A stretch of DNA of 64,000 bases from NCBI RefSeq assembly GCF_964355755.1, contig NC_092677.1:766101-830100 (forward strand), given 5' to 3'. Of the stretch, positions 1,480 through 45,154 are shown piece by piece. The DNA comes from Antedon mediterranea. Lineage: Eukaryota; Animalia; Echinodermata. The translations under genes and the position numbers were made by a program. A model generated the notes under the pieces. It did no database searches and had not been told where the DNA came from. It saw only the letters and a program-made list of their open reading frames with translations. How positions within the stretch are numbered: position 1 is the stretch's first letter; every line of letters starts with the position of its first letter.

Positions 1480-1824
1480 CTAGATTTAATTCGTCACTAT
1501 GACGAATTATAGGTTATATGCATTGATTTAAATAAAGATAATTGATTTTTAAAAGATATTTTGATTCATTGATTTTCTCAGATTCTTTAATTATTTATAA
1601 TATAAGATAGGACCTTGCTAACGCGAATACAATAGCCGGTATCACAATCCGATCAAAGATCCCTCTGCGTATAATGTCATAAACCACATTTGCTGTTACA
1701 TAATAATAAAGACATAAGTTATTTTTTATCTAGATTTCATTATAAATCATGTGTATAATATATACACTAAGAAATAAATTTGAACAAACAATACGGATAA
1801 TAAAAAAAAAATCTTATTTCGTTT

Positions 1825-1897
1825 CCCAAAAGGTGAGGCTCGATCTCGGTACCTTGAGTGCCATAGACACGAGCACACACCACCGAGCCATACACAG
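1825..1897 (-). ncRNA. tRNA-derived segment with Pol III A/B-box-like motifs in family-A bodies (all 11 A copies)
   Basis: Minus-strand consensus TGTGTA-TGGCTCGGTGG-TGTGTGCTCGTGTCTATGGCACTCAAGGTACC-GAGATCGAGTCTC-ACCTTGGG, followed ~12 nt later by a long T run. Acceptor stem does not pair, so not a functional tRNA. Confidence 0.5.
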
Positions 1898-2895
1898 CTG
1901 ACTAAAAATTGTAGAAAAATTCCTCCGTGTATTTACTATGCAGTAACCACTTTGGTGCAGATAGATTATTACATACCGCAATGAATTATAATTTTTTACT
2001 ATGATGACATCTCTAAAAATGTACAAAAATGATGCACTGTCAAACTATATACTTTTAACTTTAATATATGAACTTTTGAAGGAAGAAAGTTAATGTTAAG
2101 TTTGTTATTTTGGCCTAAGAAAATGTCATGATTTGTTTGATTGTCGAAATGAATTTTTTTTAATTTAATATGCAATTAATTATGGCTTAATCAACTTTTG
2201 TTCCCTTAGTTTAATAATTAATCATACATAAGATACATACACTTCAAGAAAATGAAATAAAAAATATGTGTTCCCGAGCATTCTGACGATCTATATTAAT
2301 TTTAAAATTTAGCATATTTTCACCATTTTGTTAACTTACACGTGCGTAGCCTGTCACTTTTGACGTGCTCGTATAAGGCAATTACGCGTTGAAAAGTGAA
2401 TAAAATATGATGATATTATTAAAGAAAGGTTGTACAACCGAAATTGGACAAAAAGAGTGCGCATTAACGTATAACGCGCAGTGCGCGTGCAAAAATCTGC
2501 GCACTCATGGCAATTTTTTAAACGCTTAAAATTGCCTGAAACGTACTCTAATTTCCTCGAAAATAAATTTTGACAATTTTGAACATTTTAAGCGCGCGTA
2601 CGCAAGCGTTATATGCGCTACGCACGTAATTGTATTGCCATATGATGAAATATGACCTGAAATTTATGAGTACCAAATTTTGTTTAATTGTGATTCATGC
2701 TTGTGAAGATATGATTACAAACGTGATTTCGTAAAATCGCGCGTAGACCGCGTAATTTTTGATTACGCATCGTGAAAATATAACCACATCGATTCCTGTC
2801 CATAAGGAATATACTCTGAAAAATTGACTTAGATAGATGAAACTGATATCAAGATAATTCACGGACAAAATAGTGCTAAGGAAAGAATAAATAAA

Positions 2896-4299
2896 CTAGA
2901 TTTAATTCGTCACTATGACGAATTATAGGTTATATGCATTGATTTAAATAAAGATAATTGATTTTTAAAAGATATATTGATTGATTGATTTTCTCAGAAT
3001 CTTTAATTATTTATAATATATGATAGGACCTTGCTAACGCGAACACCATAGCCGGTATCACAATCCGATCAAAGATCCATATGCGTATAATGTCATAAAC
3101 CACATTTGTTGTTACATAATAATAAAGACATAAGTTAATTTTTATCTAGATTTCATTGTAAATCATGTGTATAATCTATACACTAAGAAATAAATTTGAA
3201 CAAACAATACGGATAATAAAAAAAAATCTTATTTCGTTTCCCAAGGTGAGACTCGATCTCGGTACCTTGAATGCCATAGACACGAGCACAGACCACCGAG
3301 CCGTACACAACTGACTAAAAGTTGTAGAAAAATTCCTTCGTGTATTTACTATGCAGTAACCACTTTGATGCAAATAGATTATTACATACCGAAATGAATT
3401 ATAATTTTTTACTATGATGACATCTTTAAAATGTATACAAATGATGCACTGTCAAACTACATACTTTTAACTTTAATATATGAATTTTTGAAGGAAGAAA
3501 GTTAATGTTAAGTTTGTTATTTTGGCCTAAGAAAATGTCATAATTTGTTTGATTGTCGAAATTATTTTTTTTAAATTTAATATGCAATTAATGATGACTT
3601 AATCAACTTTTGTTCTCTTTATTTGATAATAAATCATACATATGATACATACACTTCAAGAAAATGAAATAAAAAATAGGTGTTCCCCTGCATTCTGACG
3701 ATATATATTAATTTTAAAATTTAGCATATTTTCACCATTTTGTTAACTTATACGTGCGTAGCCAGTCACTTTTGACGTGCTCGTATAACGCAATTTCGAG
3801 TTGAAACCTGAATCAAATATGATGATATTATTAAAGAAAGATTGTAAAACAGAAATCGGGCAAAAAGAGTGCGCATTAACGTTTAACGCGCAGTGCGCGT
3901 GCAAAAATCTGCGCACTCATGGCATTTTTTTAAACGCTTAAAATTGCCTGAAACGTACTCTAATTTCATCGAAAATAAATTTTGACAATTTTGAACATTT
4001 TAAGCGCGCGTACGCAAGCGTTATATGCGCTACGCACGTAATTTTATTGCCATATGATGAAATATGACCTGAAATTTATGAGTACCAAATTTTGTTTAAT
4101 TGTGATTCATGCTTGTGAAGATATGATTACAAACGTGATTTCGTAAAATCGCGCGTAGACCGCGTAATTTTTGATTACGCATCGTGAAAATATAACCACA
4201 TCGATTCCTGGCCATGAGGAATATACTCTGAAAACTTGACTTAGCTAGATTAAACTGATGCCAAGATAATGCACGGACAAAATAGTGCTAAGGAAAGAA

Positions 4300-4334
<35 letters not shown>

Positions 4335-4382
4335 AGATTTTGACAGAATCAAGAGGTTATATGCATATCATGCATATAACCT
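2896..4382 (-). mobile_element. Complete family-A non-autonomous Helentron (A2)
   Basis: CTAG at 2896, hairpin, subTIR AGGTTATATGCAT; (TAAA)n tract 4298-4335; head 4336-4382 ending in palindrome AGGTTATATGCAT-atc-ATGCATATAACCT. Confidence 0.88.
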
Positions 4383-7222
4383 AACTAGATTTAATTCGTC
4401 ACTATGACGAATTATAGGTTATATGCATTGATAATTAAAATAAAGATAATTTATTTTTAAAAGATATTTTGATTCATTGATTTTCTCAGATTCTTTAAAT
4501 AATATATAATATATGATAGGACCTTGCTAACGCGAATACAATAGCCGGTATCACAATCCGATCAAAGATCCCTCTGCGTATAATGTCATAAACCACATTT
4601 GCTGTTACATAATAATAAAGACATAAGTTATTTGTTATCTAGATTTCATTATAAATCATGTGTATAATATATACACTAAGAAATAAATTTGAACAAACAA
4701 TACGGATAATAAAAAAAAAATTTATTTCGTTTCCCAAGGTGAGACTCGATCTCGGTACCTTGAGTGCCATAGACACGAGCACACACCACCGAGCCATACA
4801 CAACTGACTAAAAATTGTAGAAAAATTCCTCCGTGTATTTACTATGCAGTAACCACTTTGGTGCAGATAGATTATTACATACCGCAATGAATTATAATTT
4901 TTTACTATGATGACATCTCTAAAAATGTACAAAAATGATGCACTGTCAAACTATATACTTTTAACTTTAATATATGAACTTTTGAAGGAAGAAAGTTAAT
5001 GTTAAGTTTGTTATTTTGGCCTAAGAAAATGTCATAATTTGTTTGATTGTCGAAATGAATTTTTTTTAATTTAATATGCAATTAATTATGGCTTAATCAA
5101 CTTTTGTTCCCTTAGTTTAATAATAAATCATACATAAGATACATACACTTCAAGAAAATTAAATAAAAAATAATTATGTGTTCCCGAGCATTCTGACGAT
5201 CTATATTAATTTTAAAATTTAGCATATTTTCACCATTTTGTTAACTTACACGTGCGTAGCCTGTCACTTTTGACGTGCTCGTATAAGGCAATTACGCGTT
5301 GAAAAGTGAATAAAATATGATGATATTATTAAAGAAAGGTTGTACAACCGAAATCGGACAAAAAGAGTGCGCATTAACGTATAACGCGCAGTGCGCGTGC
5401 AAAAATCTGCGCACTCATGGCAATTTTTTAAACGCTTAAAATTGCCTGAAACGTACTCTAATTTCATCGAAAATAAATTTTGACAATTTTGAACATTTTA
5501 AGCGCGCGTACGCAAGCGTTATATGCGCTACGCACGTAATTGTATTGCCATATGATGAAATATGACCTGAAATTTATGAGTACCAAATTTTTTTTAATTG
5601 TGATTCATGCTTGTGAAGATATGATTACAAACGTGATTTCGTAAAATCGCGCGTAGACCGCGTAATTTTTGATTACGCATCGTGAAAATATAACCACATC
5701 GATTCCTGGCCATAAGGAATATACTCTGAAAAATTGACTTAGATAGATGAAACTGATATCAAGATAATTCACGGACAAAATAGTGCTAAGGAAAGAATAA
5801 ATAAACTAGATTTAATTCGTCACTATGACGAATTATAGGTTATATGCATTGATAATTAATATAAAGATAATTGATTTTTAAAAGATATTTTGATTCATTG
5901 ATTTTCTCGGATTCTTTAATTATTTATAATATATGATAGGACCTTGCTAACGCGAATACAATAGCCGGTATCACAATCCGATCAAAGATCCCTCTGCGTA
6001 TAATGTCATAAACCACATTTGCTGTTACATAATAATAAAGACATAAGTTATTTTTTATCTAGATTTCATTATAAATCATGTGTATAATATATACACTAAG
6101 AAATAAATTTGAACAAACAATACGGTTAATAAAAAAAAAATCTTATTTCGTTTCCCAAGGTGAGACTCGATCTCGGTACCTGGAGTGCCATAGACACGAG
6201 CACACACCACCGAGCCATACACAACTGACTAAAAATTGTAGAAAAACTTCCTCCGTGTATTTACTATGCAGTAACCACTTTGATGCAGATAGATTATTAC
6301 ATACCGCAATGAATTATAATTTTTTACTATGATGACATCTCTAAAAATGTACAAAAATGATGCACTGTCAAACTATATACTTTTAACTTTAATATATGAA
6401 CTTTTGAAGGATGAAAGTTAATGTTAAGTTTGTTATTTTGGCCTAAGAAAATGTCATAATTTGTTTGATTGTCGAAAATATTTTTTTTAATTTAATATGC
6501 AATTAATCATGGCTTAATCAACTTTTGTTCCCTTAGTTTAATAATAAATCATACATAAGATACATACACTTCAAGAAAATGAAATAAAAAATATGTGTTC
6601 CCGAGCATTCTGACGATCTATATTAATTTTAAAATTTAGCATATTTTCACCATTTTGTTAACTTACACGTGCGTAGCCTGTCACTTTTGACGTGCTCGTA
6701 TAAGGCAATTACGCGTTGAAAAGTGAATAAAATATGATGATATTATTAAAGAAAGGTTGTACAACCGAAATCGGACAAAAAGAGTGCGCATTAACGTATA
6801 ACGCGCAGTGCGCGTGCAAAAATCTGCGCACTCATGGCAATTTTTTAAACGCTTAAAATTGCCTGAAACGTACTCTAATTTCATCGAAAATAAATTTTGA
6901 CAATTTTGAACATTTTAAGCGCGCGTACGCAAGCGTTATATGCGCTACGCACGTAACTGTATTGCCATATGATGAAATATGACCTGAAATTTATGAGTAC
7001 CAAATTTTGTTTAATTGTGATTCATGCTTGTGAAGATATGATTACAAACGTGATTTCGTAAAATCGCGCGTAGACCGCGTAATTTTTGATTACGCATCGT
7101 GAAAATATAACCACATCGATTCCTGGCCATAAGGAATATACTCTGAAAAATTGACTTAGATAGATGAAACTGATATCAAGATAATTCACGGACAAAATAG
7201 TGCTAAGGAAAGAATAAATAAA

Positions 7223-8851
7223 CTAGAACTTAAACTCGTCACTTGAGGACGAGTTTGGTTATCCGCCAGCAACAAAGCGTATCTTGCGTATTCAAGTACT
7301 TCCAAGTTATGACTTTTCCAAAAAAAGTAGGCTATTCAAAATTAAAACTGCCCTCTCAGTGTAATAACCAACTAAACCCTTTTAAATAATTGTTTTCCCC
7401 TAACGGGACTCGAACCCGGTACCTCTGATACCAAAGTCGGTTGCATTACACATCGAGCCATATGACCACCTGCTGACGAAAATCCGAAGAAAGAGTCCTG
7501 GTTCATTCGGTATGTCGTGAACCCCCTCGATGCAAGTTGATTATTACATATCAAACTTAAATCATAAATTTTACTATGATGAAATCTTCAAAAATTTTAA
7601 ACGCTGATATTTTATGAAAGTACATACTTTCAAGTTTTATATATTAACATGTAAAGAAAAAAGATAAATGTTATGTTTATTGTTTTGCTCTTTGAATATG
7701 TTTATGTTTGTTTGATGATAATTATTTCAAACATTACATTTAATATGCAAATAATGTAGGCATCAAACACTTTTTAACATTCAAGACTATAATAAATTAG
7801 ACCTATGATTAATACACTGCAAGAAAATAAAATAAAAAATGGGGGTAACCTTGCATTCTGATGAACTGTTTCATTTTTAAAAGTAGACATATTTAGGAAC
7901 ATTTTCATAATTTTTTGACGTTTTCGTGCGCAACCTGTCGTGTTTAACGTGCTCGTAGAACGCCATTTCAAGTTGAAAAGTGAATAAAATAACGTAAAAT
8001 TGTTAACCGAAGATTTAAAAACACAAATCGTGTAAAAGAAATGTTTATACGTGTTCCCTGCGCCATGCGCGCGTAAAAATGTGCGCACCAGTGGCAATTT
8101 TTTAAACGCCTAAAATGACCTGAATCGTGCTCTAATTTAATCAAAAATTGATTTGAAGCATTTTAAAATTTCAAACGCCATTTACGCGCGCACTTTCTAA
8201 TGTTACAAATTGCGGTAGCGTTAAAAAAGTTAACTATTGATGTGAAGCAAACGTGGCTGAAAATGACGTTAATAAATATTCATTTGTGTCGAAGTTATAA
8301 CCAATTTAAGATTTTCAGAAAATCACGCGTAACTTACGCTACGCGGCTCTGACATTGTCAAAAAGCTTGGCTGGACAACTTCAGTAAAATGTCTAAATGC
8401 TGAACAAGTTACAACATATTATGTTTACACGTTGAAGAGAAACAGCGTGCACAAAATAAGAAGAGTAAAATATTTCAAACGCAATTTACGCGAAAACTTT
8501 CTAATCTCCAAAAATTTGTTAAACATTCCAAAAGTTAGCCATTGATGTGAAGAAAACGTGGCTGAAAATTTTGTTAAAAAATATTTATCGGTTTCGAAGT
8601 TATGACCGATTTAAGATTTTCAGAAAATCGCGCGTAACTTACGCTACGCGGATCTGACATTGTCAAAAAGCTTGGCAGTACATCTACAGTTAAATGTCTA
8701 TATGTTGATGAAGTTACAACATGTTATGTTAACACGTTAAAGAGAAAACGCGTGCACAAAATCCGAGAAAGAAAGAAGAATAATAAAAAAAAAAAAAAAA
8801 AAAAAAAGTAACACTACAATAACAAAGGTTATCCGCTTGAGGCGGATAACC
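7223..8851 (-). mobile_element. Complete family-B non-autonomous Helentron (B1)
   Basis: CTAG 7223, hairpin AAACTCGTC-acttgag-GACGAGTTT, subTIR GGTTATCCGC; internal ~300-bp direct duplication (~8160-8455, ~8470-8760); GAAA/poly-A tract; head 8808-8851 with GGTTATCCGC-ttgag-GCGGATAACC. Confidence 0.88.
7397..7467 (-). ncRNA. tRNA-derived segment with A/B boxes in family-B bodies (also ~19706, ~21258, ~22815)
   Basis: Minus strand GGTCATA-TGGCTCGATGTG-TAATGCAACCGACTTTGGTATCAGAGGTAC-CGGGTTCGAGTCCCG; canonical T-arm/B-box GGTTCGAGTCC. Confidence 0.6.
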
Positions 8852-11800
8852 AACTAGATTTAATTCGTCACTATGACGAATTATAGGTTATATGCATTGA
8901 TTTAAATAAAGATAATTGATTTTTAAAAGATATATTGATTGATTGATTTTCTCAGAATCTTTAATTATTTATAATATATGATAGGACCTTGCTAACGCGA
9001 ATAGCATAACCGGTATCACAATCCGATCAAAGATCCCTCTGCGTATAATGTCATAAACCGCATTTGTTGTTACATAATAATAAAGACATAAAGTAACTTT
9101 TTATCTAGATTTCATTATAAATCATGTGTATAATCTATACACTAAGAAATAAATTTGAACAATACGGATAATAAAAAAAAAATCTTATTTCGTTTCCCAA
9201 GGTGAGACTCGAACTCGGTACCTTGAATGCCATTGACACGAGCACAGACCATCGAGCCATACACAACTGACTAAAAGTTGGAGAAAAATTCCTCCGTGTA
9301 TTTACTATGCAGTAACCACTTTGGTGCAGATAGATTATTACATACCGCAATGAATTATAATGTTTTACTATGATGACATCTTTAAAAATTTAAAAAAATG
9401 ATGCACTGTCAAACTATATACTTTTAACTTTAATATATGAACTTCTTAAGGAAGAAAGTTAACGTTAAGTTTGTTATTTTGGCCTAAGAAAATGTTATAA
9501 TTTGTTTGATTGTCGAAATTAATTTTGTTAAATTTAATATGCCATTAATGATGACTTAATCAACTTTTGTTCTTCTAATTTCATAATAAATCATACATAT
9601 GATACATACACTTCAAGAAAATTAAATAAAAAATAGGTGTTCCCGAGCATTCTAACGATATATATTAATTTTAAAATTTAGCATATTTTCACCATTTTGT
9701 TAACTTACACGTGCGTAGCCCGTCACTTTTGACGTGCTCGTATAACGCTGTTTCGCGTTGAAAAGTGAATAAAATATGATGATATTATTAAAGAAAGGTT
9801 ATACAACAGTAATCGGACACAAACAGTGCGCATTAACGTTTGACGCGCAGTACGCGTGCAAAAATCTGCGCACTCATGGCAATTTTTTAAACGCTTAAAA
9901 TTGCCTGAAACGTACTCTAATTTCATCGAAAATAAATTCTGACAATTTTCAACATTTTAAGCGCGCGTACGCATGCGTTATATGCGCTACGCACGTAATT
10001 GTATTTCCATATGATGAAATATGACCTGAAATTTATGAGTACCAAATTTTGTTTAAAAGTGATTCATGTTTGTGAAGATATGATTACAAACGTGATTTCG
10101 TTAAATCGCGCGTAGACCGCGTAATTTTTGATTGCGCATCGTGAAAACATAACCACATCGATTCCTGGCCATAAGGAATATACTCTGAAAAATTGACTTA
10201 GATAGATGAAACTGATGCCAAGATAATTCACGGACAAATAGTGCTAAGGAAAGAATAAATAAACTAGATTTAATTCGTCACTATGACGAATTATAGGTTA
10301 TATGCATTGATTTAAATAAAGATAATTGATTTTTAAAAGATATATTGATTGATTGATTTTCTCAGAATCTTTAATTATTTATAATATATGATAGGACCTT
10401 GCTAACGCGAACACCATAGCCGGTATCACAATCCGATCAAAGATCCCTCTGCGTATAATGTCATAAACCGCATTTGTTGTTACATAATAAAAAAGACATA
10501 AAGTAACTTTTTATCTAGATTTCATTATAAATCATGTGTATAATCTATACACTAAGAAATAAATTTGAACAATACGGATAATAAAAAAAAAATCTTATTT
10601 CGTTTCCCAAGGTGAGACTCGAACTCGGTACCTTGAATGCCATTGACACGAGCACAGACCATCGAGCCATACACAACTGACTAAAACTTGGAGAAAAATT
10701 CCTCGGTGTATTTACTATGCAGTAACCACTTTGGTGCAGATAGATTATTACATACCGCAATGAATTATAATGTTTTACTATGATGACATCTTTAAAAATT
10801 TAAAAAAATGATGCACTGTCAAACTATATACTTTTAACTTTAATATATGAACTTCTTAAGGAAGAAAGTTAACGTTAAGTTTGTTATTTTGGCCTAAGAA
10901 AATGTTATAATTTGTTTGATTGTCGAAATTAATTTTGTTGAATTTAATATGCCATTAATGATGACTTAATCAACTTTTGTTCTTCTAATTTCATTATAAA
11001 TCATACATATGATACATACACTTCAAGAAAATTAAATAAAAAATAGGTGTTCCCGAGCATTCTAACGATATATATTAATTTTAAAATTTAGCATATTTTC
11101 ACCATTTTGTTAACTTACACGTGCGTAGCCCGTCACTTTTGACGTGCTCGTATAACGCTGTTTCGCGTTGAAAAGTGAATAAAATATGATGATATTATTA
11201 AAGAAAGGTTATACAACAGTAATCAGACACAAACAGTGCGCATTAACGTTTGACGCGCAGTGCGCGTGCAAAAATCTGCGCACTCATGGCAATTTTTTAA
11301 ACGCTTAAAATTGCCTGAAACGTACTCTAATTTCATCGAAAATAAATTCTGACAATTTTCAACATTTTAAGCGCGCGTACGCAAGCGTTATATGCGCTAC
11401 GCACGTAATTTTATTGCCATATGATGAAATATGACCTGAAATTTATGAGTACCAAATTTTGTTTAATTGTGATTCATGCTTGTGAAGATATGATTACAAA
11501 CGTGATTTCGTAAAATCGCGCGTAGACCGCGTAATTTTTGATTACGCATCGTGAAAATATAACCACATCGATTCCTGGCCATAAGGAATATACTCTGAAA
11601 ACTTGACTTAGCTAGATGAAACTGATGCCAAGATAATGCACGGACAAAATAGTGCTAAGGAAAGAATAAATAAACTAGATTTAATTCGTCACTATGACGA
11701 ATTATAGGTTATATGCATTGATAATTAAAATAAAGATAATTGATTTTTAAAAGATATTTTGATTCATTGATTTTCTCAGATTCTTTAATTATTTATAATA

Positions 11801-14516
11801 TATGATAGGACCTTGCTAACGCGAATACAATAGCCGGTATCACAATCCGATCAAAGATCCCTCTGCGTATAATGTCATAAACCACATTTGCTGTTACATA
11901 ATAATAAAGACATAAGTTATTTTTTATCTAGATTTCATTATAAATCATGTGTATAATATATACACTAAGAAATAAATTTGAACAAACAATACGGTTAATA
12001 AAAAAAAAATCTTATTTCGTTTCCCAAGGTGAGACTCGATCTCGGTACCTTGAGTGCCATAGACACGAGCACACACAACCGAGCCATACACAACTGACTA
12101 AAAATTGTAGAAAAATTCCTCCGTGTATTTACTATGCAGTAACCACTTTGATGCAGATAGATTATTACATACCGCAATGAATTATAATTTTTTACTATGA
12201 TGACATCTCTAAAAATGTACAAAAATGATGCACTGTCAAACTATATACTTTTAACTTTAATATATGAACTTTTGAAGGATGAAAGTTAATGTTAAGTTTG
12301 TTATTTTGGCCTAAGAAAATGTCATAATTTGTTTGATTGTCGAAAATATTTTTTTTAATTTAATATGCAATTAATCATGGCTTAATCAACTTTTGTTCCC
12401 TTAGTTTAATAATAAATCATACATAAGATACATACACTTCAAGAAAATGAAATAAAAAATATGTGTTCCCGAGCATTCTGACGATCTATATTAATTTTAA
12501 AATTTAGCATATTTTCACCATTTTGTTAACTTACACGTGCGTAGCCTGTCACTTTTGACGTGCTCGTATAAGGCAATTACGCGTTGAAAAGTGAATAAAA
12601 TATGATGATATTATTAAAGAAAGGTTGTACAACCGAAATCGGACAAAAAGAGTGCGCATTAACGTATAACGCGCAGTGCGCGTGCAAAAATCTGCGCACT
12701 CATGGCAATTTTTTAAACGCTTAAAATTGCCTGAAACGTACTCTAATTTCATCGAAAATAAATTTTGACAATTTTGAACATTTTAAGCGCGCGTACGCAA
12801 GCGTTATATGCGCTACGCACGTAACTGTATTGCCATATGATGAAATATGACCTGAAATTTATGAGTACCAAATTTTGTTTAATTGTGATTCATGCTTGTG
12901 AAGATATGATTACAAACGTGATTTCGTAAAATTGCGCGTAGACCGCGTAATTTTTGATTACGCATCGTGAAAATATAACCACATCGATTCCTGGCCATAA
13001 GGAATATACTCTGAAAAATTGACTTAGATAGATGAAACTGATATCAAGATAATTCACGGACAAAATAGTGCTAAGGAAAGAATAAATAAACTAGATTTAA
13101 TTCGTCACTATGACAAATTATAGGTTATATGCATTGATTTAAATAAAGATAATTGATTTTTAAAAGATATATTGATTGATTGATTTTCTCAGAATCTTTA
13201 ATTATTTATAATATATGATAGGACCTTGCTAACGCGAACACCTTAGCCGGTATCACAATCCGATCAAAGATCCATATGCGTATAATGTCATAAACCACAT
13301 TTGTTGTTACATAATAATAAAGACATAAGTTACTTTTTATCTATATTTCATTATAAATCATGTGTATAATCTATACACTAAGAAATAAATTTGAACAAAC
13401 AATACGGATAATAAAAAAAAAATCTTATTTCGTTTCCCAAGGTGAGACTCGATCTCGGTACCTTGAATGCCATAGACACGAGCACAGACCATCGAGCCAT
13501 ACACAACTGACTAAAAGTTGTAGAAAAATTCCTTCGTGTATTTACTATGCAGTAACCACTTTGGTGCAAATAGATTATTACATACCGCAATGAATTATAA
13601 TTTTTTACTATGATGACATCTTTAAAAATGTAAACAAATGATGCACTGTCAAACTATATACTTTTAACTTTAATATATGAACTTCTTAAGAAAGAAAGTT
13701 AATGTTAAGTTTGTTATTTCGGCCTAAGAAAATGTCATAATTTGTTTGATTGTCGAAATTAATTTTTGTAAATTTAATATGCCATTAATGATGACTTAAT
13801 CAAATTTTGTTCTCTTAATTTTATAATAAATCATACATATGATACATACACTTCAAGAAAATGAAATAAAAAATAGCTGTTCCCGAGCATTCTAACGATA
13901 TATATTAATTTTAAAATTTAGCATATTTTCACCATTTTGTTAACTTACACGTGCGTAGCCTGTCACTTTTGACGTGCTCGTATAACGCTGTTTCGCGTTG
14001 AAAAGTGAATAAAATATGATGATATTATTAAAGAAAGGTTATACAACAGTAATCGGACAAAAACAGTGCGCATTAACGTTTGACGCGCAGTGCACGTGCA
14101 AAAATCTGCGCACTCATGGCAATTTTTTAAACGCTTAAAATTGCCTGAAACGTACTCTAATTTCATCGAAAATAAATTCTGACAATTTTCAACATTTTAA
14201 GCGCGCGTACGCATGCGTTATATGCGCTACGCACGTAATTGTATTGCCATATGATGAAATATGACCTGAAATTTATGAGTACCAAATTTTGTTTAAAAGT
14301 GATTCATGCTTGTGAAGATATGATTACAAACGTGATTTCGTTAAATCGCGCGTAGACCGCGTAATGTTTGATTGCGCACCCTGAAAACATAACCACATCG
14401 ATTCCTGGCCATAAGGAATATACTCTGAAAAATTGACTTAGATAGATGAAACTGATATCAAGATAATTCACGGACAAAATAGTGCTAAGGAAAGAATAAA
14501 TAAATAAATAAATAAA

Positions 14517-14691
14517 GATTTTGACAGAATCAAGAGGTTATATGCATGATAATGCATATAACCTAATAAATAAATAAAGATTTTGACAGAATCAAGAGGT
14601 TATATGCATGATAATGCATATAACCTAATAAATAAATAAATAAAGATTTTGACAGAATCAAGAGGTTATATGCATATCATGCATATAACCT
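14517..14691 (-). repeat. Stack of three family-A 5' heads
   Basis: GATTTTGACAGAATCAAGAGGTTATATGCAT-loop-ATGCATATAACCT at 14517, 14579 and 14645, separated by (TAAA)n; loops gata, gata, atc. Confidence 0.95.
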
Positions 14692-16107: not shown

Positions 16108-17702
16108 CTAGACATGAAACTCGTCACTTTGACGAGTTAGTTATCCGCACAACGACAAACGCCACGTGCACGTCATACGTTAGAATATTGCACACAGATA
16201 AAGATTATGGCATTATGACAAGAACTGAAGAATATGATATGCTGTTAGTGCTGAATTCTGTCAATTTTGTGTCATATAGTATATACATGCAAACAGTATA
16301 ATCTGTATACATATTACATACAGTGTAGAATAGGTGAAATTACGAGACCCGCCATTTATTCAAATTTTTAACATGGCGACGGTATCAAAATGAAACACTT
16401 AAATATCAATTTCAGAAGGAAATTATCTCAGAAACAACATATTAACGTGTAGAAGAAATTTGAATACGTAAAATATAGATGCGCACCCTTTTAAATGTGA
16501 TGAACTATTACGCAAAATATGAAAATACGACTTTTTTTATTCAACTGGCCATATGATGACGTCACAACATCCGATTGGCAAAATGTTTACATGAATTCGT
16601 ATCTACAATCCAATAGCTTCCAGAAAACGTTTTAATCGTGATTATCACATTTTATTCTTACGAGCTATTACAGATTAAAATTTACTGTAAAGATGAAATT
16701 AATGACCAATGTAATTTAAATTTTTAGGCATGATGACGTTAAAAAAATTAAAAAATTTTTAATTCATGCAAAAGATAGTTGATTGACCTAGAATATATTA
16801 AAATCGGGGTGAAAATGGACAACGAATAAGTGGAGATGCGCTCTATTAAATGTGATGAGCTATGACGAAAGAGACAAAAATCCTATATTTTATATTCGCG
16901 TGGCCTTACGATGACGTCACAATGTCCGGTTAGCCATATTAATGCATGATTCGATATCTACAACTTATCAACTTCCAGAATATGTAATTTAAAAAAAGTT
17001 CTCCATGTAGTTTAGAATCTATGACTGTTTAAAAATAGGCATAATTTTGACGAATTTTTGAACTTTTTCACCAGAAACGCGTGCAAATTATTTAATTCGA
17101 CGTGCTCGTATGACGTAATTTAAGTCGAAATTGTTTAAAAGTTGGTAACATTACTATAAAAGGCTGAAAAAACATAAATCACGCGAAAAAAATATGTTTT
17201 TAACGCTACGCGTGTACCGCGTGCGTAAAAAGTTTCGCGCGCGTGGGAATTTTTGACATGCTCAAAATGACATGAAACGCATAGAAAGTTGATTAGAAGT
17301 TGATTTTTCGCATTCTAAAATTTTAAACGCGCGTGCGCGCGTAACTTTTTGTGAAACATGCTATTTTTAATCCATAGAAAGTTAGCGCTTGATGTGACTT
17401 AAATTTTCACAAAGTGTCAAAACAAAATTATGTTTCGTTTTTAGTCTATGATCAATCATTGAAATTCATAAAATCGCGCATAAGTCACGTTGCCCAACTC
17501 TGACGTCATTCAAAAATAGGAGGTGCACAAGTTCACGTAAATGTCGATATGTTGACAAAGTTACGATATGTTCTGTTTACACGTTTTAGAGAAACGCGAC
17601 GCACAAAAATGACAGAAGGAAAGAAGTATAATACAGAAAAAAAAAAAAAATATGATGAAACAGGACGATTACAAGGAGTTATCCGCTACTAAGCGGATAA
17701 CT
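16108..17702 (-). mobile_element. Complete family-C non-autonomous Helentron (C1) nested in A9
   Basis: CTAG 16108, hairpin AACTCGTCActtTGACGAGTT, subTIR AGTTATCCGC; head palindrome AGTTATCCGCT-acta-AGCGGATAACT ending 17702; followed by the displaced A head 17721-17766. Confidence 0.88.
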
Positions 17703-17776
17703 AATAAAGAAATAAATAAAGATTTTGACAGAATCAAGAGGTTATATGCATGAATGCATATAACCTAATAAATAAA

Positions 17777-19353
17777 CTAGACATGAAACTCGTCACTTTG
17801 ACGAGTTAGTTATCCGCACGACAAACGCCACGAGCACGTCATGCGTTGGAATATTGCACACAGAAAAAGATTATGGCATTATGACCTGAAGAAGAATATG
17901 ATTATGTTATTATTGCTGAATTCTGTTATTTTGTGTCATAGTATACACAGTATAATCTGTATACATCACATACAGTGTAGAATAGGTGAAATTACGGGAC
18001 CCGCTATTTATTCCAATTTTTAACATGTTGACGGTTTCAAAATGAAACCCGAAGGTAGCAATTTCGGAAGGAAATTATCTCAGCAACAACATATTAGCAT
18101 GTAGAAGAAATTTGAATACGTGAAATATTGATGCGCGCTCTTTTAAATGTAATGAATTATAATGCAAAAGATGAAAATACGACTTTTTTTATTTAACTGG
18201 CCATATGATGACTTCACAACATCCGATTGGCAAAATGTTCACATGATTTCGTATCTACAATTCAATAGCTTCCAGAAAACGTTTTAATCGTGATTATCAC
18301 ATTTCATTCTTATGAGCTATAACAGATTAAAATTTACTGTAAAGATGAAATTTATGCAACATGTAATTTAAATTTTTAGGCATGATGACGTCATAAAAAT
18401 TAAAATATTTTTAACTCATGCGAAAGACAGTTGATTGACCTAGACAATATCAAAATCGGGGTGAAAATGGAAAACGGATAAGTGTAGATGCGCTCTATTA
18501 AATGTGATGAGCTATGACGAAAGATACAAAAATCCTAAATTTTGTATTCGCGTGGCCATACAGTGACGTCACAATGTCCGGTTAGCCATATTAATGCATG
18601 ATCCGATATTTACAACTCATCAACTTCCAGAATATGCAATAAAAATAACTTTCACCGTTTGGTTTAGAAACTACGACTGTTTAAAAAAAGGTATAATTTT
18701 GACAAATTTTGACAAATTTTTGAACTTTTTCATAAAAAACGCACATAAATTATCCAATTCAACGTGCCCGTATGACGTGATTTTAAGTCGAAAATGTTTA
18801 GAAATTGGTAAAATTACTAAAAAAGGGTGGAAAAACATAAATCACGGGAAAAAAAATGTTTTCAACGCTACGTGTGCACCGCACGCGTAAAAAAATGCGC
18901 ACGCATGGGAATTTTTGACATGCTCAAAATGACATGAAACGTGTAGAAAGTTGATTAGAAATTGATTTTTCTCAATTTGAAATTTTAAACGCGCATGCGC
19001 GCGTAACTTCGTGTGAAACATGCCATTTTTTTACCACAGTCAGTTAGCGCAAGATATAAATTAAACTTTTGTTAAGTTTAAATTTAAATTGTTATATGGT
19101 TTTCGATCTATATTAAATACGAGAAATTCGTAAAAACGCGCGTAAGTCATGTTGCGCAACTCTGTCGTCATTCACAATAGGAGGTGCACTATTTCACGTG
19201 AATGCCCACATGTTGACAAAGTTATAAAATGTTATGTTTACACGTTTTTGAGTTACGCGAGACACAAAATTGACAGAAAGAAAGAATAATACAGAAAAAA
19301 AAAAAGATGATTTCATACAGTTACAAGGAGTTATCCGCTGAATGCGGATAACT
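17777..19353 (-). mobile_element. Complete family-C non-autonomous Helentron (C2)
   Basis: Same termini as C1; head AGTTATCCGC-tgaat-GCGGATAACT ending 19353. Confidence 0.88.
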
Positions 19354-19375
19354 AATAAATAAATAAATAAATAAA

Positions 19376-19530
19376 GATTTTGACAGAATCAAGAGGTTAT
19401 ATGCATATCATGCATATAACCTAATAAAGATTTTGACAGAATCAAGAGGTTATATGCATGATAATGCATATAACCTAATAAAGATTTTGACAGAATCAAG
19501 AGGTTATATGCATGATAATGCATATAACCT
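19376..19530 (-). repeat. Stack of three family-A 5' heads
   Basis: Heads at 19376, 19429 and 19483; loops atc, gata, gata. Confidence 0.95.
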
Positions 19531-19532
19531 AA

Positions 19533-22500
19533 CTAGATCTTAAACTCGTCACTTGAGGACGAGTTTGGTTATCCGCCCGCAACAAAACGTATCTTGCGCA
19601 TTCAAGTACTTTTCAGTTGTGACTTTTCCAAAAAAAGTAGCCTATTCAAAATTAAAACTGCCCTTTAAGTGTAATAACCAAACAAATCCTTTTATTTAAT
19701 TGTTTTCCCGTAATGAGATTTGAACCCGGTACCTCTGATACCAAAGTCGGTTGCACTACACATCGAGTCATATGAGCACCTGCTGAAGAAAATCCGAAGA
19801 AAGAGTCCTCGTTCATTCGGTATGTCGTGAATCCCCTCGATGCAAGTTGATTATTACATATCAAACTTATATCATAAATTTTACTATGATGAAATGTTCA
19901 CAAATTTTAAACAGTGACATATTAGCAAAGTGCATACTTTCAAGTTTTATATATCAACATGTAAAGAAAAAAGATAAACGTTATGTTTATTGTTTTGCTC
20001 TTTGAATATGTTATTGTTTGTTTGATGATAAAAATTTCGAAAATTATATTTAATATGCAAATAATGTAGCCATCAAACACGTTTTAACATTCAACACTAT
20101 AATAAATCAGATCTACGATTCATAGACTGTAAAAAAATAAAATAAAAAATGGGGGTAACCGTGCATTCTGATGAACTGTATCACTTTTAAAAGTAGACAT
20201 ATTTTGCAACATTTTCACAATTTGTTGACGTTTTCGTGCGCAACCAGTCATGTTTAACGTGCTCGTAGAACGCCATTTCAAGTTGAAAAGTGAATAAAAT
20301 AACGTAAAATTGTTAACCTAAGTTTGAAAAAGACAATTTATGTAAAAGAAAAGCTCATACGCGTTCCCTGCGCCGTGCGCGCGTAAAAATGTTCGCACCA
20401 GTGGAAATTTTTAAACCCTTAAAATGACCTGAAACGTGCTCTAATTTAATCAGAAATTGATTTGAAGCATTTTAAAATTTTAAACGCCGTTTACGCACGC
20501 ACTTTCTAATGTTACAAAATTCGGTAGGGATAAAAAAGTTAACAATTAATGTAAAGCAAACGTGGCTGAAAATTACGTTAAAAAATATTTATCTGTTTCA
20601 AAGTTATGATCAATTTAAGATTTTCAGAAAATCGCGCGTAACTTACGATACGCGCATCATACAGCGTCCAAAAGCTTGACTGCACATCTTCAGTTAAAAG
20701 TCTATATGTTGACCAAGTTACAACATGTTATGTTCACGCGTTGCAGAGAAACGGCGTGTACAAATTTGGAGCATTTTAAAATTTCAAACGCAATTTACGC
20801 GCAAACTTTCTAGTCTCCAAAAATGTGCTAAAGATTGAAAAAGTTAGCCATTGATGTGAGGAAAACGTGGCTGCAAGTTACGTTAAAAAATATTTATCGG
20901 TTTCGAAGTTATGTTCAATTTAATATTTTCAGAAAATTGCGCGTAACTTACGCTACGCGGATCTGACAGAGTCCAAAAGCTTGGCTGCACATCTTCAGTT
21001 AAATTTCTAAATGTTTACCAAGTTACAACATGTTATGTTAACACGTTGCAGAGAAACGTCGCGTACAAAAAGTGGCGGAAAGAAAGAAGAATAACTAGAT
21101 CTGAACTCGTCACTTGAGGACGAGTTTGGTTATCCGCCCGCAACAAAACGTATCTTGCGCATTCAAGTACTTTTCAGTTGTGACTTTTCCAAAAAGTAGC
21201 CTATTCAAAATTAAAATTGCCCTTTCAGTGTAATAACCAAACAAATCCTTTTATTTCTCCGTGATGAGATTTGAACCCGGTACCTCTGATACCAAAGTCG
21301 GTTGCACTAAACATCGAACCATATGAGCACCTGCTGAAGAAAATCCGAAGAAAGAGTCCTCGTTCATTCGGTATGTCGTGAATCCCCTCGATGCAAGTTG
21401 ATTATTACATATCAAACTTAAATCATAAATTTTACGATGATGAAATCTTCACAAATTTTAAACAGTGACATTTAGCAAAGTGCATACTTTCAAGTTTTAT
21501 ATATCAACATGTAAAGAAAAAAGATAAACGTTATGTTTATTGTTTTGCTCTTTGAAAATGTTATTGTTTGTTTGATGATAAAAATTTCGAAAATTATATT
21601 TAATATGCAAATAATGTAGCCATCAAACACGTTTTAACATTCAACACTATAATAAATCAGATCTACAATTCATAGGCTGTAATAAAATAAAATAAAAAAT
21701 GGGGGTAACCTTGCATTCTGATGAACTGTATCACTTTTAAAAGTAGACATATTTTGCAACATTTTCACAATTTGTTGACGTTTTCGTGCGCAACCAGTCA
21801 TGTTTAACGTGCTCGTAGAACGCCATTTCAAGTTGAAAAGTGAATAAAATAACGTAAAATTGTTAACCTAAGTTTGAAAAACACAATTTATGTAAAAGAA
21901 AAGCTCATACGCGTTCCCTGCGCCATGCGCGCGTAAAAATGTGCGCTCCAGTGGCAATTTTTAAACCCTTAAAATGACCTGAAACGTGCTCTAATTTAAT
22001 CAGAAATTGATTTGAAGCATTTTAAAATTTCAAACGCCGTTTACGCACGCACTTTCTAATGTTACAAAATTCGGTAGGGATAAAAAAGTTAACAATTAAT
22101 GTAAAGCAAACGTGGCTGAAAATTACGTTAAAAAATATTTATCTGTTTCAAAGTTATGATCAATTTAAGATTTTCAGAAAATCGCGCGTAACTTACAATA
22201 CGCGCATCATACAGCGTCCAAAAGCTTGGCTGCACATCTTCAGTTAAATGTCTATATGTTGACCAAGTTACAACATGTTATGTTCACGCGTTGCAGAGAA
22301 ACAGCGTGTACAAATTTGGACCATTTTAAAATTTCAAACGCAATTTACGCGCAAACTTTCTAGTCTCCAAAAATGTGCTAAAGATTGAAAAAGTTAGCCA
22401 TTGATGTGAAGAAAACGTGGCTGCAAGTTACGTTAAAAAATATTTATCGGTTTCGAAGTTATGATCAATTTAAGATTTTCAGAAAATTGCGCGTAACTTA

Positions 22501-24209
22501 CGCTACGCGGATCTGACAGCGTCCAAAAGCTTGGCTGCACATCTTCAGTTAAATTTCTAAATGTTTACCAAGTTACAACATGTTATGTTAACACGTTGCA
22601 GAGAAACGTCGCGTACAAAAAGTGGCGGAAAGAAAGAAGAACTAGATCTGAACTCGTCACTTGAGGACGAGTTTGGTTATCCGCCCGCAACAAAACATAT
22701 CTTGAGCATTCAAGTACTTTTCAGTTTTTGGCTTTTCCAAAAAAGTAGCCTATTCGAAATTAAAACTGCCTTTTCAGTGTAACAACCAAATAAATCCTTA
22801 TATTTAATTGTTTTCCCGTGACGGGACTCGATCCCGGTACCTCTGATACCAAAGTCGGTTGCACTACACATCGAGTCATATGAGCACCTGCCGAAGATAA
22901 TCCGAAGAAAGATTACTCGTTCGTTCGGTATGTCGTGAACTCCCTCGATGCAAGTTGATTATTACATATCGAACTAAATCATAATTTTTACTATGATGAA
23001 ATCTTCATAAATTTTAAACAGTGACATATTATGAAAGAGCATACTTTCAAGTTTTATATATTAACATGTGAAGAAAAAATATAACAGTTATGTCTATTGT
23101 TTTGCTCTTTGAAAATGTTATCGTTTGTTTGATGATAACAATTTCCAAAATTATATTTAATATGCAAATAGTGTAGCCAGCAAACACGTTTTAACATTAA
23201 AAATTATTATAAATCAGATCTATGATTCATAAACTGCAAGAAATAAAAATAAAAAATAGGGGTAACCTTGCATTCTGATGAACTGTATCGTTTTTAAAAG
23301 TAGACATATTTTGCAACATTTTCACAATTTTTTGACGTTTTTCTGCGCAACCAGTCATGTTTAACGTGCTCGTAGAACGCCATTTCAAGTTGAATAGTGA
23401 ATAAAATAACGTAAAATTGTTAACCAAAGATGTAAAAACATAAATCGTGTAAAAGAAATGCTCATACGCGTTCCCTGCGCCGTGCGCGCGTAAAAATGTG
23501 CGCACCAGTGGCAATTTTTTAAACGCTTAAAATGACCTGAATCGTGCTCTAATTTAATCAGAAATTAATTTCAAGCATTTTAAAACTTCAAACGTCGTTT
23601 ACGCGCTTTTTCGAATGTTACAAAATTCGTTAGGGTTAAAAAAGTTAACAATTGATGTGAAGCAAACGTGGCTGAAAATTACGTTAAAAAATATTTATCT
23701 GTTTCAAAGTTATGATCAATTTAAGATTTTCAGAAAATCGCGCGTAACTTACGATAAGCGCCTCTGACAGCGTCCAAAAGCTTGGCTGCACAATTTCAGT
23801 TAGATGTCAAAATGTTGACCAAGTTACAACATGTTATGTTAACGCGTTGCAGAGAAACAGCGTGTACAAATTTGGAGAATTTTTAAATTTCAAACGCAAT
23901 TTACGCGAAAATTTTCTAGTCTCCAAAAATTTGGTAGAGATCGAAAAAGTTAGCCATTGATGTGAAGAAAACGTGGCTGAAAACTTCGTTAAAAAATATT
24001 TATCGGTTTTGAAGTTATGACCGATTTAAGATTTTCAGAAAATCGCGCGTAACTTACGCTACGCGTATCTGACAGCGTCCAAAAGCTTGGCTGCACAACT
24101 TCAGTTAAATGTCTAAATGTTGACCAAGTTACAACGTGTTATGTTAACACGTTGAAGAGAAACGTCGCGAACAAAAGTGGCGGAAAGAAAGAAGAATAAT
24201 AAAAAAAAA
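19533..24209 (-). mobile_element. Three nested family-B bodies (B2-B4)
   Basis: CTAG-hairpin-GGTTATCCGC at 19533, 21095 and 22642; ~1.55-kb bodies homologous to B1. Confidence 0.88.
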
Positions 24210-27050
24210 CTAGATTTAATTCGTCACTATGACGAATTATAGGTTATATGCATTGATAATTAAAATAAAGATAATTTATTTTTAAAAGATATTTTGATTC
24301 ATTGATTTTCTCAGATTCTTTAAATAATATATAATATATGATAGGACCTTGCTAACGCGAATACAATAGCCGGTATCACAATCCGATCAAAGATCCCTCT
24401 GCGTATAATGTCATAAACCACATTTGCTGTTACATAATAATAAAGACATAAGTTATTTTTTATCTAGATTTCATTATAAATCATGTGTATAATATATACA
24501 CTAAGAAATAAATTTGAACAAACAATACGGATAATAAAAAAAAAAATTTATTTCGTTTTCCAAGGTGAGACTCGATCTCGGTACCTTGAGTGCCATAGAC
24601 ACGAGCACACACCACCGAGCCATACACAACTGACTAAAAATTGTAGAAAAATTCCTCCGTGTATTTACTATGCAGTAACCACTTTGGTGCAGATAGATTA
24701 TTACATACCGCAATGAATTATAATTTTTTACTATGATGACATCTCTAAAAATGTACAAAAATGATGCACTGTCAAACTATATACTTTTAACTTTAATATA
24801 TGAACTTTTGAAGGAAGAAAGTTAATGTTAAGTTTGTTATTTTGGCCTAAGAAAATGTCATAATTTGTTTGATTGTCGAAATGAATTTTTTTTAATTTAA
24901 TATGCAATTAATTATGGCTTAATCAACTTTTGTTCCCTTAGTTTAATAATAAATCATACATAAGATACATACACTTCAAGAAAATTAAATAAAAAATATG
25001 TGTTCCCGAGCATTCTGACGATCTATATTAATTTTAAAATTTAGCATATTTTCACCATTTTGTTAACTTACACGTGCGTAGCCTGTCACTTTTGACGTGC
25101 TCGTATAAGGCAATTACGCGTTGAAAAGTGAATAAAATATGATGATATTATTAAAGAAAGGTTGTACAACCGAAATCGGACAAAAAGAGTGCGCATTAAC
25201 GTATAACGCGCAGTGCGCGTGCAAAAATCTGCGCACTCATGGCAATTTTTTAAACGCTTAAAATTGCCTGAAACGTACTCTAATTTCATCGAAAATAAAT
25301 TTTGACAATTTTGAACATTTTAAGCGCGCGTACGCAAGCGTTATATGCGCTACGCACGTAATTGTATTGCCATATGATGAAATATGACCTGAAATTTATG
25401 AGTACCAAATTTTGTTTAATTGTGATTCATGCTTGTGAAGATATGATTACAAACGTGATTTCGTAAAATCGCGCGTAGACCGCGTAATTTTTGATTACGC
25501 ATCGTGAAAATATAACCACATCGATTCCTGGCCATAAGGAATAATACTCTGAAAAATTGACTTAGATAGATGAAACTGATATCAAGATAATTCACGGACA
25601 AAATAGTGCTAAGGAAAGAATAAATAAACTAGATTTAATTCGTCACTATGACGAATTATAGGTTATATGCATTGATAATTAAAATAAAGATAATTTATTT
25701 TTAAAAGATATTTTGATTCATTGATTTTCTCAGATTCTTTAAATAATATATAATATATGATAGGACCTTGCTAACGCGAATACAATAGCCGGTATCACAA
25801 TCCGATCAAAGATCCCTCTGCGTATAATGTCATAAACCACATTTGCTGTTACATAATAATAAAGACATAAGTTATTTTTTATCTAGATTTCATTATAAAT
25901 CATGTGTATAATATATACACTAAGAAATAAATTTGAACAAACAATACGGATAATAAAAAAAAAAATTTATTTCGTTTCCCAAGGTGAGACTCGATCTCGG
26001 TACCTTGAGTGCCATAGACACGAGCACACACCACCGAGCCATACACAACTGACTAAAAATTGTAGAAAAATTCCTCCGTGTATTTACTATGCAGTAACCA
26101 CTTTGGTGCAGATAGATTATTACATACCGCAATGAATTATAATTTTTTACTATGATGACATCTCTAAAAATGTACAAAAATGATGCACTGTCAAACTATA
26201 TACTTTTAACTTTAATATATGAACTTTTGAAGGAAGAAAGTTAATGTTAAGTTTGTTATTTTGGCCTAAGAAAATGTCATAATTTGTTTGATTGTCGAAA
26301 TGAATTTTTTTAAATTTAATATGCAATTAATTATGGCTTAATCAACTTTTGTTCCCTTAGTTTAATAATAAATCATACATAAGATACATACACTTCAAGA
26401 AAATGAAATAAAAAATATGTGTTCCCGAGCATTCTGACGATCTATATTAATTTTAAAATTTAGCATATTTTCACCATTTTGTTAACTTACACGTGCGTAG
26501 CCTGTCACTTTTGACGTGCTCGTATAAGGCAATTACGCGTTGAAAAGTGAATAAAATATGATGATATTATTAAAGAAAGGTTGTACAACCGAAATCGGAC
26601 AAAAAGAGTGCGCATTAACGTATAACGCGCAGTGCGCGTGCAAAAATCTGCACACTCATGGCAATTTTTTAAACGCTTAAAATTGCCTGAAACGTACTCT
26701 AATTTCATCGAAAATAAATTTTGACAATTTTGAACATTTTAAGCGCGCGTACGCAAGCGTTATATGCGCTACGCACGTAATTGTATTGCCATATGATGAA
26801 ATATGACCTGAAATTTATGAGTACCAAATTTTGTTTAATTGTGATTCATGCTTGTGAAGATATGATTACAAACGTGATTTCGTAAAATCGCGCGTAGACC
26901 GCGTAATTTTTGATTACGCATCGTGAAAATATAACCACATCGATTCCTGGCCATAAGGAATATACTCTGAAAAATTGACTTAGATAGATGAAACTGATAT
27001 CAAGATAATTCACGGACAAAATAGTGCTAAGGAAAGAATAAATAAATAAA

Positions 27051-27248
27051 GATTTTGACAGAATCAAGAGGTTATATGCATGATAATGCATATAACCTAA
27101 TAAAGATTTTGACAGAATCAAGAGGTTATATGCATGATAATGCATATAACCTAAAAAGAAACACTACAATAACAAAGGTTATCCGCTTGAGGCGGATAAC
27201 CAATAATATAAAAAAAGAAACACTACAATTCCAAGGGCTTATCCGCTA
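27051..27248 (-). repeat. Mixed head stack A, A, B, B(truncated)
   Basis: A heads at 27051 and 27105; B head 27158-27201; a second B-type head from 27218 breaks off at ...CTTATCCGCT and fuses to internal D-body sequence. Confidence 0.92.
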
Positions 27249-29492: not shown

Positions 29493-29588
29493 AGACAACA
29501 ATCAGGTGGTGGTTCGAAACGTTTACGAAATAACAAAGGTCGTTTTGTCTAAACTAAGAAGATTGATAACAAAAAAGCACAAGGTAAT

Positions 29589-45100: not shown

Positions 45101-45154
45101 AACAAAATTTGTGGAAAGAAAGAAGAAAATAGAAAAAAAAAGAGAAAAAGAAAA

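Follow-up and report, generated by a model that had tools for sequence, protein, structure and literature searches.

The window, a 64,000-nucleotide stretch of the Antedon mediterranea genome, contains two stacks of repeated elements with a Helentron coding region between them (Table 1). The main stack (positions 1,480-27,247) is 26 kb of DNA that resembles a satellite and consists of 17 bodies and 15 heads from three HINE/Helentron-type families. All of its elements lie on the minus strand, and no opposite-strand elements were found with the three start patterns tried. No open reading frame of at least 150 amino acids occurs inside either array. To the left is a sequence that, judged by its motifs, is presumably a decayed LINE; Pfam gave no match for 981-1493, and a motif scan detected no 5' continuation of the LINE in the window.

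Table 1. Features of the window; brackets enclose the contents of a host element.
Feature	Positions	Strand	Remarks
Presumed decayed LINE (endonuclease C-terminus, RT-like remnants), target of A1, interrupted at TT	1-1477	-	from translation
A1 body and left tract, outermost element	1480-2895	-	head not found
A2, complete solo element	2896-4382	-	head 4336-4382
A3, encloses A4 with all its contents	4385-19530	-	body 4385-5795, head 19483-19530
A4, encloses B1 and A5	5806-19476	-	head 19429-19476
B1, complete solo element	7223-8851	-	
A5, encloses A6, A9 and C2 at three distinct repeat units of the A5 tract	8854-19422	-	head 19376-19422
A6( A7 11675-14626 ( A8 13091-14564 ))	10264-14691	-	A8 at depth 7
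A9, encloses C1 (16108-17702)	14698-17766	-	
C2, complete solo element	17777-19353	-	
B2 body and left tract	19533-21094	-	head not found
B3( B4 22642-27201 ( A10 24210-27152 ( A11 25629-27098 )))	21095-27247	-	B3 head truncated
Deletion junction, then partial D body (Dp) enclosing D8 (28216-29436)	27248-29492	-	closed by variant D head 29443-29492
Autonomous-type Helentron coding region	29553-37834	+	Herpes_teg_N, OTU, DUF6570, Helitron_like_N, PIF1, endonuclease
Degenerate C/E-like internal sequence joined to D-type end and tract (D0)	39850-40515	-	
Second stack, D1( D2( D3( D4( E1 E2 E3 )E )D D5( D6() D7 truncated	40523-52590	-	

The Helentron coding region is split by one frameshift near 34,470-34,530. 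Pfam matches above the cut-off are Helitron_like_N, DUF6570, PIF1, Exo_endo_phos, OTU and Herpes_teg_N, and 86% of the query aligns at 98% identity with a protein that carries the name of Antedon mediterranea. With Rep, PIF1 helicase, AP endonuclease and DUF6570 encoded in one region, it has the make-up of an autonomous Helentron. No termini were recognised for the coding region itself. Among 17 loci related to this protein, none matches the element bodies, and the nine that were scanned for hairpins lack similar termini.

Complete elements all read TT, subTIR hairpin, T tract, body, subTIR, hairpin, CTAG and T(T). The subTIRs (10-14 bp) are common to head and body. In the complete pairs examined (18 of 18), the 3' copy ends 31-34 bp from the 3' end and the 5' copy begins at the first base after TT, with AG in C pairs and GG in B, D and E pairs. 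The 5' inverted repeat forms a hairpin with the 5' subTIR in each intact head (arms of 8-14 bp), and a stem-loop follows the 3' subTIR, with stems of 8-10 bp at 25 of 27 CTAG starts. The A8 stem is mismatched, and D1 has no CTAG. Behind the 5' subTIR lies a tract that is (TTTA)n in family A and a series of T/pyrimidine runs in B-E. TT flanks the 3' side of 26/27 CTAG ends and the 5' side in 18/18 cases, with no long target duplication, and 26/27 CTAG ends abut the tract or head of a resident element. Given the subTIRs, 5' hairpin, 3' stem-loop, tract, TT insertion and absence of coding capacity, the elements are HINEs, i.e., non-autonomous Helentrons (HLE2). They are not canonical Helitrons (HLE1; 5' TC end, A/T insertion, no subTIRs), with which they share only the CTAG 3' end. 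TRF (periods up to 500) detected no central satellite array in families A, C, D and E.

We tokenised the main stack with patterns for starts (CTAG, hairpin and subTIR) and for heads (subTIR palindromes). The resulting string, A1( A2() A3( A4( B1() A5( A6( A7( A8 ))) A9( C1() ) C2() ))) B2( B3( B4( A10( A11 )A )A )B )B, exactly reproduces that of an earlier, sequence-only reading. Parsed last-in-first-out, it matches all 15 heads to their own family, with no underflow, no surplus head and no misplaced body. The maximum depth of 7, reached at A8, is as that reading had stated; its count of nine A bodies and eight A heads is correct for the part up to 19,530, and its closing order of A, A, B, B is correct for the final group. 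The last B head (27,219-27,247) is cut short, and a short microhomology marks its fusion with the middle of a D body. A1 remains open as claimed, but not alone: B2 is unclosed too, both at a deletion. All 16 inner elements are sited in a resident's 5' tract and none inside a body. Arrays also occur outside the limits first proposed, at 27,249-29,492 and about 40,400-52,590. The latter is unbalanced, since it has three E bodies with one head and the strict parse fails at E2; thus, imbalance does occur nearby.

The earlier proposal to compare bracket balance and family matching with shuffled orders was carried out at this locus. When the 15 heads are shuffled over their slots, the chance of a family match is 1/30,030 (0/200,000 full shuffles passed). 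With the six body-adjacent heads fixed and the other nine permuted, 105/3,780 orders match by family and 3/3,780 by family plus loop variant. First-in-first-out pairing (8/15 heads match) and pairing with the nearest preceding body (9/15) were rejected. The loop class of A heads tracks a head-proximal body variant (alignment columns 1379-1380 of 1417) in 10/10 pairs, 7 of them non-adjacent. This body site was picked after inspection, and the lone head with a 2-base loop was classed as 'not 4'; when any column is allowed to give the split, 1/35 and 3/210 relabellings succeed (corrected P = 3/210).

The tracts carry a second record of the pairing. When a child is excised together with 2 A, the tract returns to its 4-bp register, and this holds for 10/10 children in closed A hosts. 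The tract halves of B3 and B4 are mutual complements in the nested pairing only, and the rejoined halves of the D4 tract equal the tract of solo D6. Reconstituted tracts show a constant net gain of 2 T per insertion. Three-base A/T runs number 4-23 in tracts vs 138-192 in bodies, and about 2.5-11% of a host's T-runs lie in its tract. The ends pair as nested brackets, and the array was probably built by repeated insertion of whole elements into the 5' T-rich tract of residents. The suggestion that these families repeatedly target the tract of their relatives gains support from the variant concordance, tract complementarity, 2-T rule and 16/16 inner insertions.

Divergence among copies varies widely. 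A3, A10 and A11 differ by 4-6 substitutions (the adjacent A10 and A11 by 4) and A4 and A7 by 5, and neighbouring A copies often come from separate subfamilies (62-76 substitutions). Private substitutions number 1-24 per A copy, and the bodies of A5, A6 and A8 are mosaic. In the second stack, D2 and D5 differ at 14/1,147 columns and D4 and D6 at 27/1,164. Although A3 already encloses nine inner elements, it is 4 substitutions from A10, so about 0.3% divergence could be enough time for a stack to grow.

We propose that a transposase would insert whole elements into the T-rich tract about 50 bases inside the 5' end of a resident, and that the tract, a long T/pyrimidine run, may be preferred as a target over the numerous TT sites in the body. 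T-richness is on one strand only, so each insert takes the orientation of its host. Because each insertion restores the old site and adds a new tract, a growing stack offers ever more targets. Such feedback, probably aided by a local hot spot or by the arrival of ready-made sub-stacks, could lead to deep nests, and deletions between repeats, together with ends that are lost or bypassed, would later blur the pattern. Unless nested copies are in the majority, uniform tract targeting by itself seldom yields a stack of 17 elements (P = 6.5e-4 with one hit per tract), and thus an extra, putative local factor is needed. The earlier view that self-insertion, rather than crossover or concatemers, made the array is supported, except as the sole process, given the three E bodies with one head, the deletion at 27,248 and the mosaic A5, A6 and A8. 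Likewise, the order of insertion is readable from outer to inner, but not among siblings within one tract.

Sub-stacks could have arrived as composite units. If small nests move as units, or if transposition starts at one 5' end and stops at the 3' end of another element, fewer events than elements would be required. This alternative is rather unlikely, but has points in its favour: E1-E2-E3 and one head form a single block in the D4 tract (with the usual 2-A addition), the outcome expected if transposition from an inner head bypasses a 3' end; host pairs that resemble each other recur (D2/D5 and D4/D6); and composite FoHelis arising from self-insertion are proposed in the text of Chellapan et al. 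(PMC5148889). The main stack shows no such imbalance, and building the units would still need tract-targeted self-insertion. Composite transposition extends the preferred explanation more than it displaces it.

It is less probable that a transposase tethered at the 5' subTIR hairpin of a resident targets the nearest TT to the left or right of it. Five of the 27 CTAG ends, including cross-family cases, are spaced from another element's head by TT alone, and the remaining inner insertions are in the tract beside a head. However, in 7/8 A hosts the first child lies 10 bases into the tract, counted from the body, and its distance to the head is variable, and the TT-only spacers follow from re-use of the regenerated site, making tethering unnecessary.

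An ordinary satellite, in which unequal exchange or rolling-circle concatemers multiplied bodies and heads independently and the balance arose by chance, is very improbable. Head runs are indeed tandem repeats (period 54-62), some bodies are near-identical, three are mosaic, and the A10/A11 adjacency is what local duplication would give. Yet neighbours often belong to other subfamilies or families and distant copies differ by 4-6 substitutions, the reverse of the homogenised head-to-tail monomers of classical satellite DNA. A concatemer predicts head-body-head-body rather than nests, and single-template rolling-circle concatemers are ruled out at the joints where a B head meets an A end or an A head meets a B end. 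An ordinary satellite would leave variant concordance and tract complementarity unexplained, and a toy model in which blocks of tokens duplicate in tandem produced a comparable multi-family string in only 60, 4 and 1 of 100,000 runs. Integration of circles via homologous crossover was rejected by reasoning: its expected products are tandem or head-swapped copies, with no tract that runs straight into the CTAG end of another element. No record spans the stack, but an assembly artefact from collapsed or shuffled repeats is scarcely credible given the private substitutions of each A copy. Nothing in assembly would be expected to create closures that match by family and variant across 15 kb, or tract halves that stay in register.

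Read-derived contigs of runs X6 and X7 contain a variant A-tract-to-A-end junction that has no counterpart in the window, at about 36 (X6) and 33 (X7) times the estimated single-copy depth; such junctions thus recur elsewhere. The joined form of the A9 tract, without C1, is also present in contigs. Opening junctions in contigs fit nests and headless tandem arrays alike. Among the contigs listed, none spans the stack or even the 3.1-kb stretch that was compared. Runs X1-X5 have small shares (0.06-0.18), with related ends at low depth in X1 and X2. Viral contigs and metagenome contigs were scanned for element ends with exact patterns, and each set gave 0 loci.

Insertion into tracts would be a further route to satellite-like arrays, beside unequal exchange, rolling-circle concatemers and double insertion at one site. 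Its signature is checkable (ends that pair, tracts that are split and a constant gain of 2 bases), so that a single genome, even with no active element, suffices to test Helentron target choice and end definition. More tentatively, feather-star Helentrons may carry a self-propagating landing site, the family's best target being present in each copy just behind the 5' hairpin, and so form, by recursion instead of unequal exchange, bracket-balanced satellite-like blocks of tens of kilobases genome-wide that are movable as units and hold a dated nested record of Helentron activity. If so, stacks would also yield the exact termini of each Helentron family. Repeat annotators will label such stacks as satellites or fragments. 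The finding is a structural one on selfish DNA, and host function is not implied.

The elements resemble HINE/DINE-1 as described in the main texts of Thomas et al. (2014; PMC4067079), Yang and Barbash (2008; PMC2374699) and the oyster Cg_HINE account (PMC7492417) in having a 5' subTIR with an inverted repeat, a microsatellite behind it, a 3' subTIR 31-34 bp from the end and then a stem-loop, as well as TT flanks, T-rich targets and two extra T that can be read as element or duplication. Where those texts report clustering and tandem arrays, the elements here form ordered nests in their own 5' tract. They also differ in the CTAG end, a Helitron1/proto-Helentron-like feature, and in the lack of a TRF-detected central satellite in A, C, D and E.

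A parallel in these texts is FoHeli of Fusarium oxysporum (Chellapan et al., 2016), where Helitron2-type elements insert near the 5' end of relatives and leave short repeated, multiple 5' termini. The cases described there with two or more short termini are few and were inferred from partial copies, without a balanced multi-family stack or a defined tract target. Rice and maize MITE multimers (Jiang & Wessler, 2001, as reviewed in PMC5172404) are likewise nests of non-autonomous DNA elements from independent events, with high self- and cross-family insertion. MITEs, however, are cut-and-paste elements with terminal repeats, and the review describes dimers and multimers, giving no depth and no satellite-like arrays. 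Tandem Helitron arrays from rolling-circle amplification (Xiong et al., 2016, as reviewed in PMC12628747) and TE dimers from double insertion (McGurk & Barbash, 2018; PMC5932611) are also transposon-derived satellite precursors in which site preference gives adjacent copies, but as presented there they are head-to-tail or end-truncated, whereas here ends pair across up to 15 kb of several families. Alu insertions beside or into Alu (PMC3783187) similarly leave a re-usable target site and are often scored in the same orientation; they arise by retrotransposition with the L1 endonuclease, and that account does not describe deep ordered stacks. The main texts of this literature describe no nests as deep and as site-specific as these; ones that go deeper may be listed in the HINE tables (PMC4067079) or in the multiple-termini table (PMC5148889). 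Measured against these texts, self-insertion is already known from Fusarium Helitron2 and rice MITE multimers, and what appears to be new is the depth and site specificity of the nests.

We identified two repeat blocks in the window, made of HINE/Helentron-type units. A complete unit, on the minus strand, opens with TT and a hairpin-forming subTIR, continues with ~20 bases of unique sequence, the T-rich tract and a body of 1.1-1.55 kb, and closes with another subTIR and a stem-loop behind it, then CTAG and T(T). This plan is shared with the HINE and DINE-1 elements described in PMC4067079, PMC2374699 and PMC7492417. Alignment separates five families, A to E, that are distant relatives of one another (identity in the aligned parts is 69% for copies A1 and B1, 83% for C1 and E1, and about 81% for C1 and D3). 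No reading frame of at least 150 aa was found within either array.

Features of the window and their positions
Feature	Position	Strand
Repeat block 1	about 1.5-29.5 kb	
First stack	1,480-27,247	minus
Helentron coding region	29553-37834	plus
54-bp repeat	32,195-32,667	
386-bp repeat (TRF)	37982-39100	
Repeat block 2	40.4-52.6 kb	
D and E elements (second stack)	40400-52590	
Gene remnant, first copy	53340-56700	
AT-rich degenerate tandem repeats, periods 22-63 bp (TRF)	57500-59600 and 60900-61260	
Gene remnant, second copy	about 61500-63700	
Small element within second gene-remnant copy	62010-62930	

The first stack contains 17 bodies (11 A, 4 B and 2 C) and 15 heads, the ~50-bp 5' hairpin ends. 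The sequence-only reading had described it as nested, family-matched brackets to a depth of 7, and this was borne out: last-in-first-out parsing pairs 15/15 heads by family, with a maximum depth of 7. Other pairing rules were rejected (family match in only 8/15 or 9/15). Six heads lie directly behind their own body and match trivially. When the remaining nine were permuted, the shuffled-order comparison that had been proposed, run here at the first stack, family matched in 105 of 3,780 orders and family plus loop variant in 3 of 3,780. A1, previously taken as the sole open element, is indeed unclosed, as is B2. The final head is truncated and joined at a short microhomology to the middle of a D body, and a deletion at this point likely took away the two missing heads. 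A motif scan for the continuation of the LINE interrupted by A1 did not find it.

Three loop forms occur among the A heads, and the A bodies vary at a two-base site ~40 bases from the tract. Loop form and body variant are concordant in all ten nested A pairs, over spans of up to 15 kb, with the two-base site picked after inspection and a lone 2-base loop grouped with the 3-base loops. If any alignment column is allowed as the split, 1/35 relabellings succeed for the seven non-adjacent pairs and 3/210 for all ten. Two of the loop forms (heads 4336-27152) resemble reverse complements that are one base apart, which suggests that the loop may have inverted inside the palindrome.

Removal of an inserted element (child) plus two A returns the host tract to its 4-base register for 10/10 children of A hosts whose head was found. 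The left tract of B3 ends early, and the missing part is found in the piece behind the B4 head; the left tract of B4 already holds that part, and its right piece is without it. The joined halves of the D4 tract equal the tract of solo D6, A-run length aside. Within the first stack, the 16 inner elements all sit in tracts (chance ~5e-16, tract share set at 11%), and 26 of the 27 CTAG ends in the whole window adjoin a resident's tract or head. Three-base A/T runs number 138-192 in bodies versus 4-23 in tracts. In 7/8 A hosts, a distance of 10 bases separates the first child from the body side of the tract, and thus sequence preference is favoured over tethering at the head.

The elements have paired ends and TT flanks, insert only in tracts and share a single orientation. 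We consider nesting by self-insertion, as first proposed, very probably the best explanation of the stack, given the variant concordance, tract register and tract-only insertion. The insertion sites described for HINE and DINE-1 elements are TT within T-rich DNA (PMC4067079, PMC2374699), and those of some Helitron2 elements lie after TTTT (PMC3627910). The tract would be the preferred target, its strand bias would set the orientation of the insert, and each insertion would preserve the old site and supply a new one. Because the site is regenerated after every insertion, the claim of a readable insertion order does not extend to siblings within one tract. For tandem insertion with block duplication, a toy model (crude, and indicative only) gave a multi-family string comparable to the observed one in ≤60/100,000 runs. 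For growth by self-insertion, uniform targeting would reach 17 elements with a probability of 6.5e-4, even at a rate of one hit for each tract; therefore a hot spot or retention at the locus, or else composite moves, were likely needed. A3, which encloses nine elements, differs from A10 by 4 substitutions, suggesting that growth may have been fast, unless conversion homogenised the copies.

Some features depart from pure nesting. A10 and A11 adjoin and are 4 substitutions apart, and A5, A6 and A8 are mosaic bodies. The second stack includes three E bodies (31-40 differences) with one E head, as one block in the D4 tract, representing either collapsed heads or an inserted read-through composite. 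Its D and E elements are all on the same strand, mostly unclosed, and cut off at about 52,590; D2/D5 and D4/D6 are close pairs.

Read-derived contigs (sets X6 and X7) were compared with 14,690-17,800, covering 15/139 joints and 12/109 insert rows, which is no census; among the pieces listed, none spans this interval. Four runs of one sample hold more than half of the sampled words; they are possibly the window's own source and so not independent. Among the joints listed is an A tract to A CTAG end junction with a tract longer than any in the window. Its depth is 11,192 in X6 and 2,044 in X7, or ~36 and ~33 units at single-copy depths estimated by eye (about 313 and 62); another junction variant occurs at ~5 units. 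Summed depths suggest a family A total within a loose range of roughly 700-3,300 units. A joined form without C1, at ~1.5 units, may be an allele or paralogue.

Between the blocks, and antiparallel to the HINE stacks on either side, is the near-intact coding region of an autonomous-type Helentron. It is broken by a single frameshift, encodes an OTU domain and a deubiquitinase-like domain (Herpes_teg_N), and has a 54-bp in-frame repeat (8.8 copies) inside the ORF. Its closest database protein, named for Antedon mediterranea, is 98% identical, which points to an Antedon feather star, or a near relative of one, as the likely host. The termini of this Helentron were looked for and not found. Downstream of the ORF, a 386-bp repeat (three copies) is possibly the central repeat of the Helentron. 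One exon of the intron-split gene remnant has a weak RPA OB-fold match (E 0.017, below cut-off), and the remnant may be a Helitron-associated RPA-like gene. The small element inserted in its second copy, noted by eye and by TRF, has internal repeats of ~32 bp and apparently inverted ends.

Related arrangements have been reported. Fusarium Helitron2 elements show self-insertion with repeated 5' termini (PMC5148889), Paramecium Helitrons target telomeric repeats in a fixed orientation (PMC13085455), and HLE2 features are given in PMC11417382. Reviews describe nested, shuffled oyster Helitron loci and plant tandem arrays from rolling-circle activity (PMC12628747), and MITE self-insertion (PMC5172404); TE dimers are also described (PMC5932611). 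In the open literature searched, Repbase and subscription papers aside, we found no account of a Helentron stack that combines such depth with balanced ends and tract targeting. The novelty is in the arrangement: the parts are ordinary, and their combination is unusually deep, ordered and testable.
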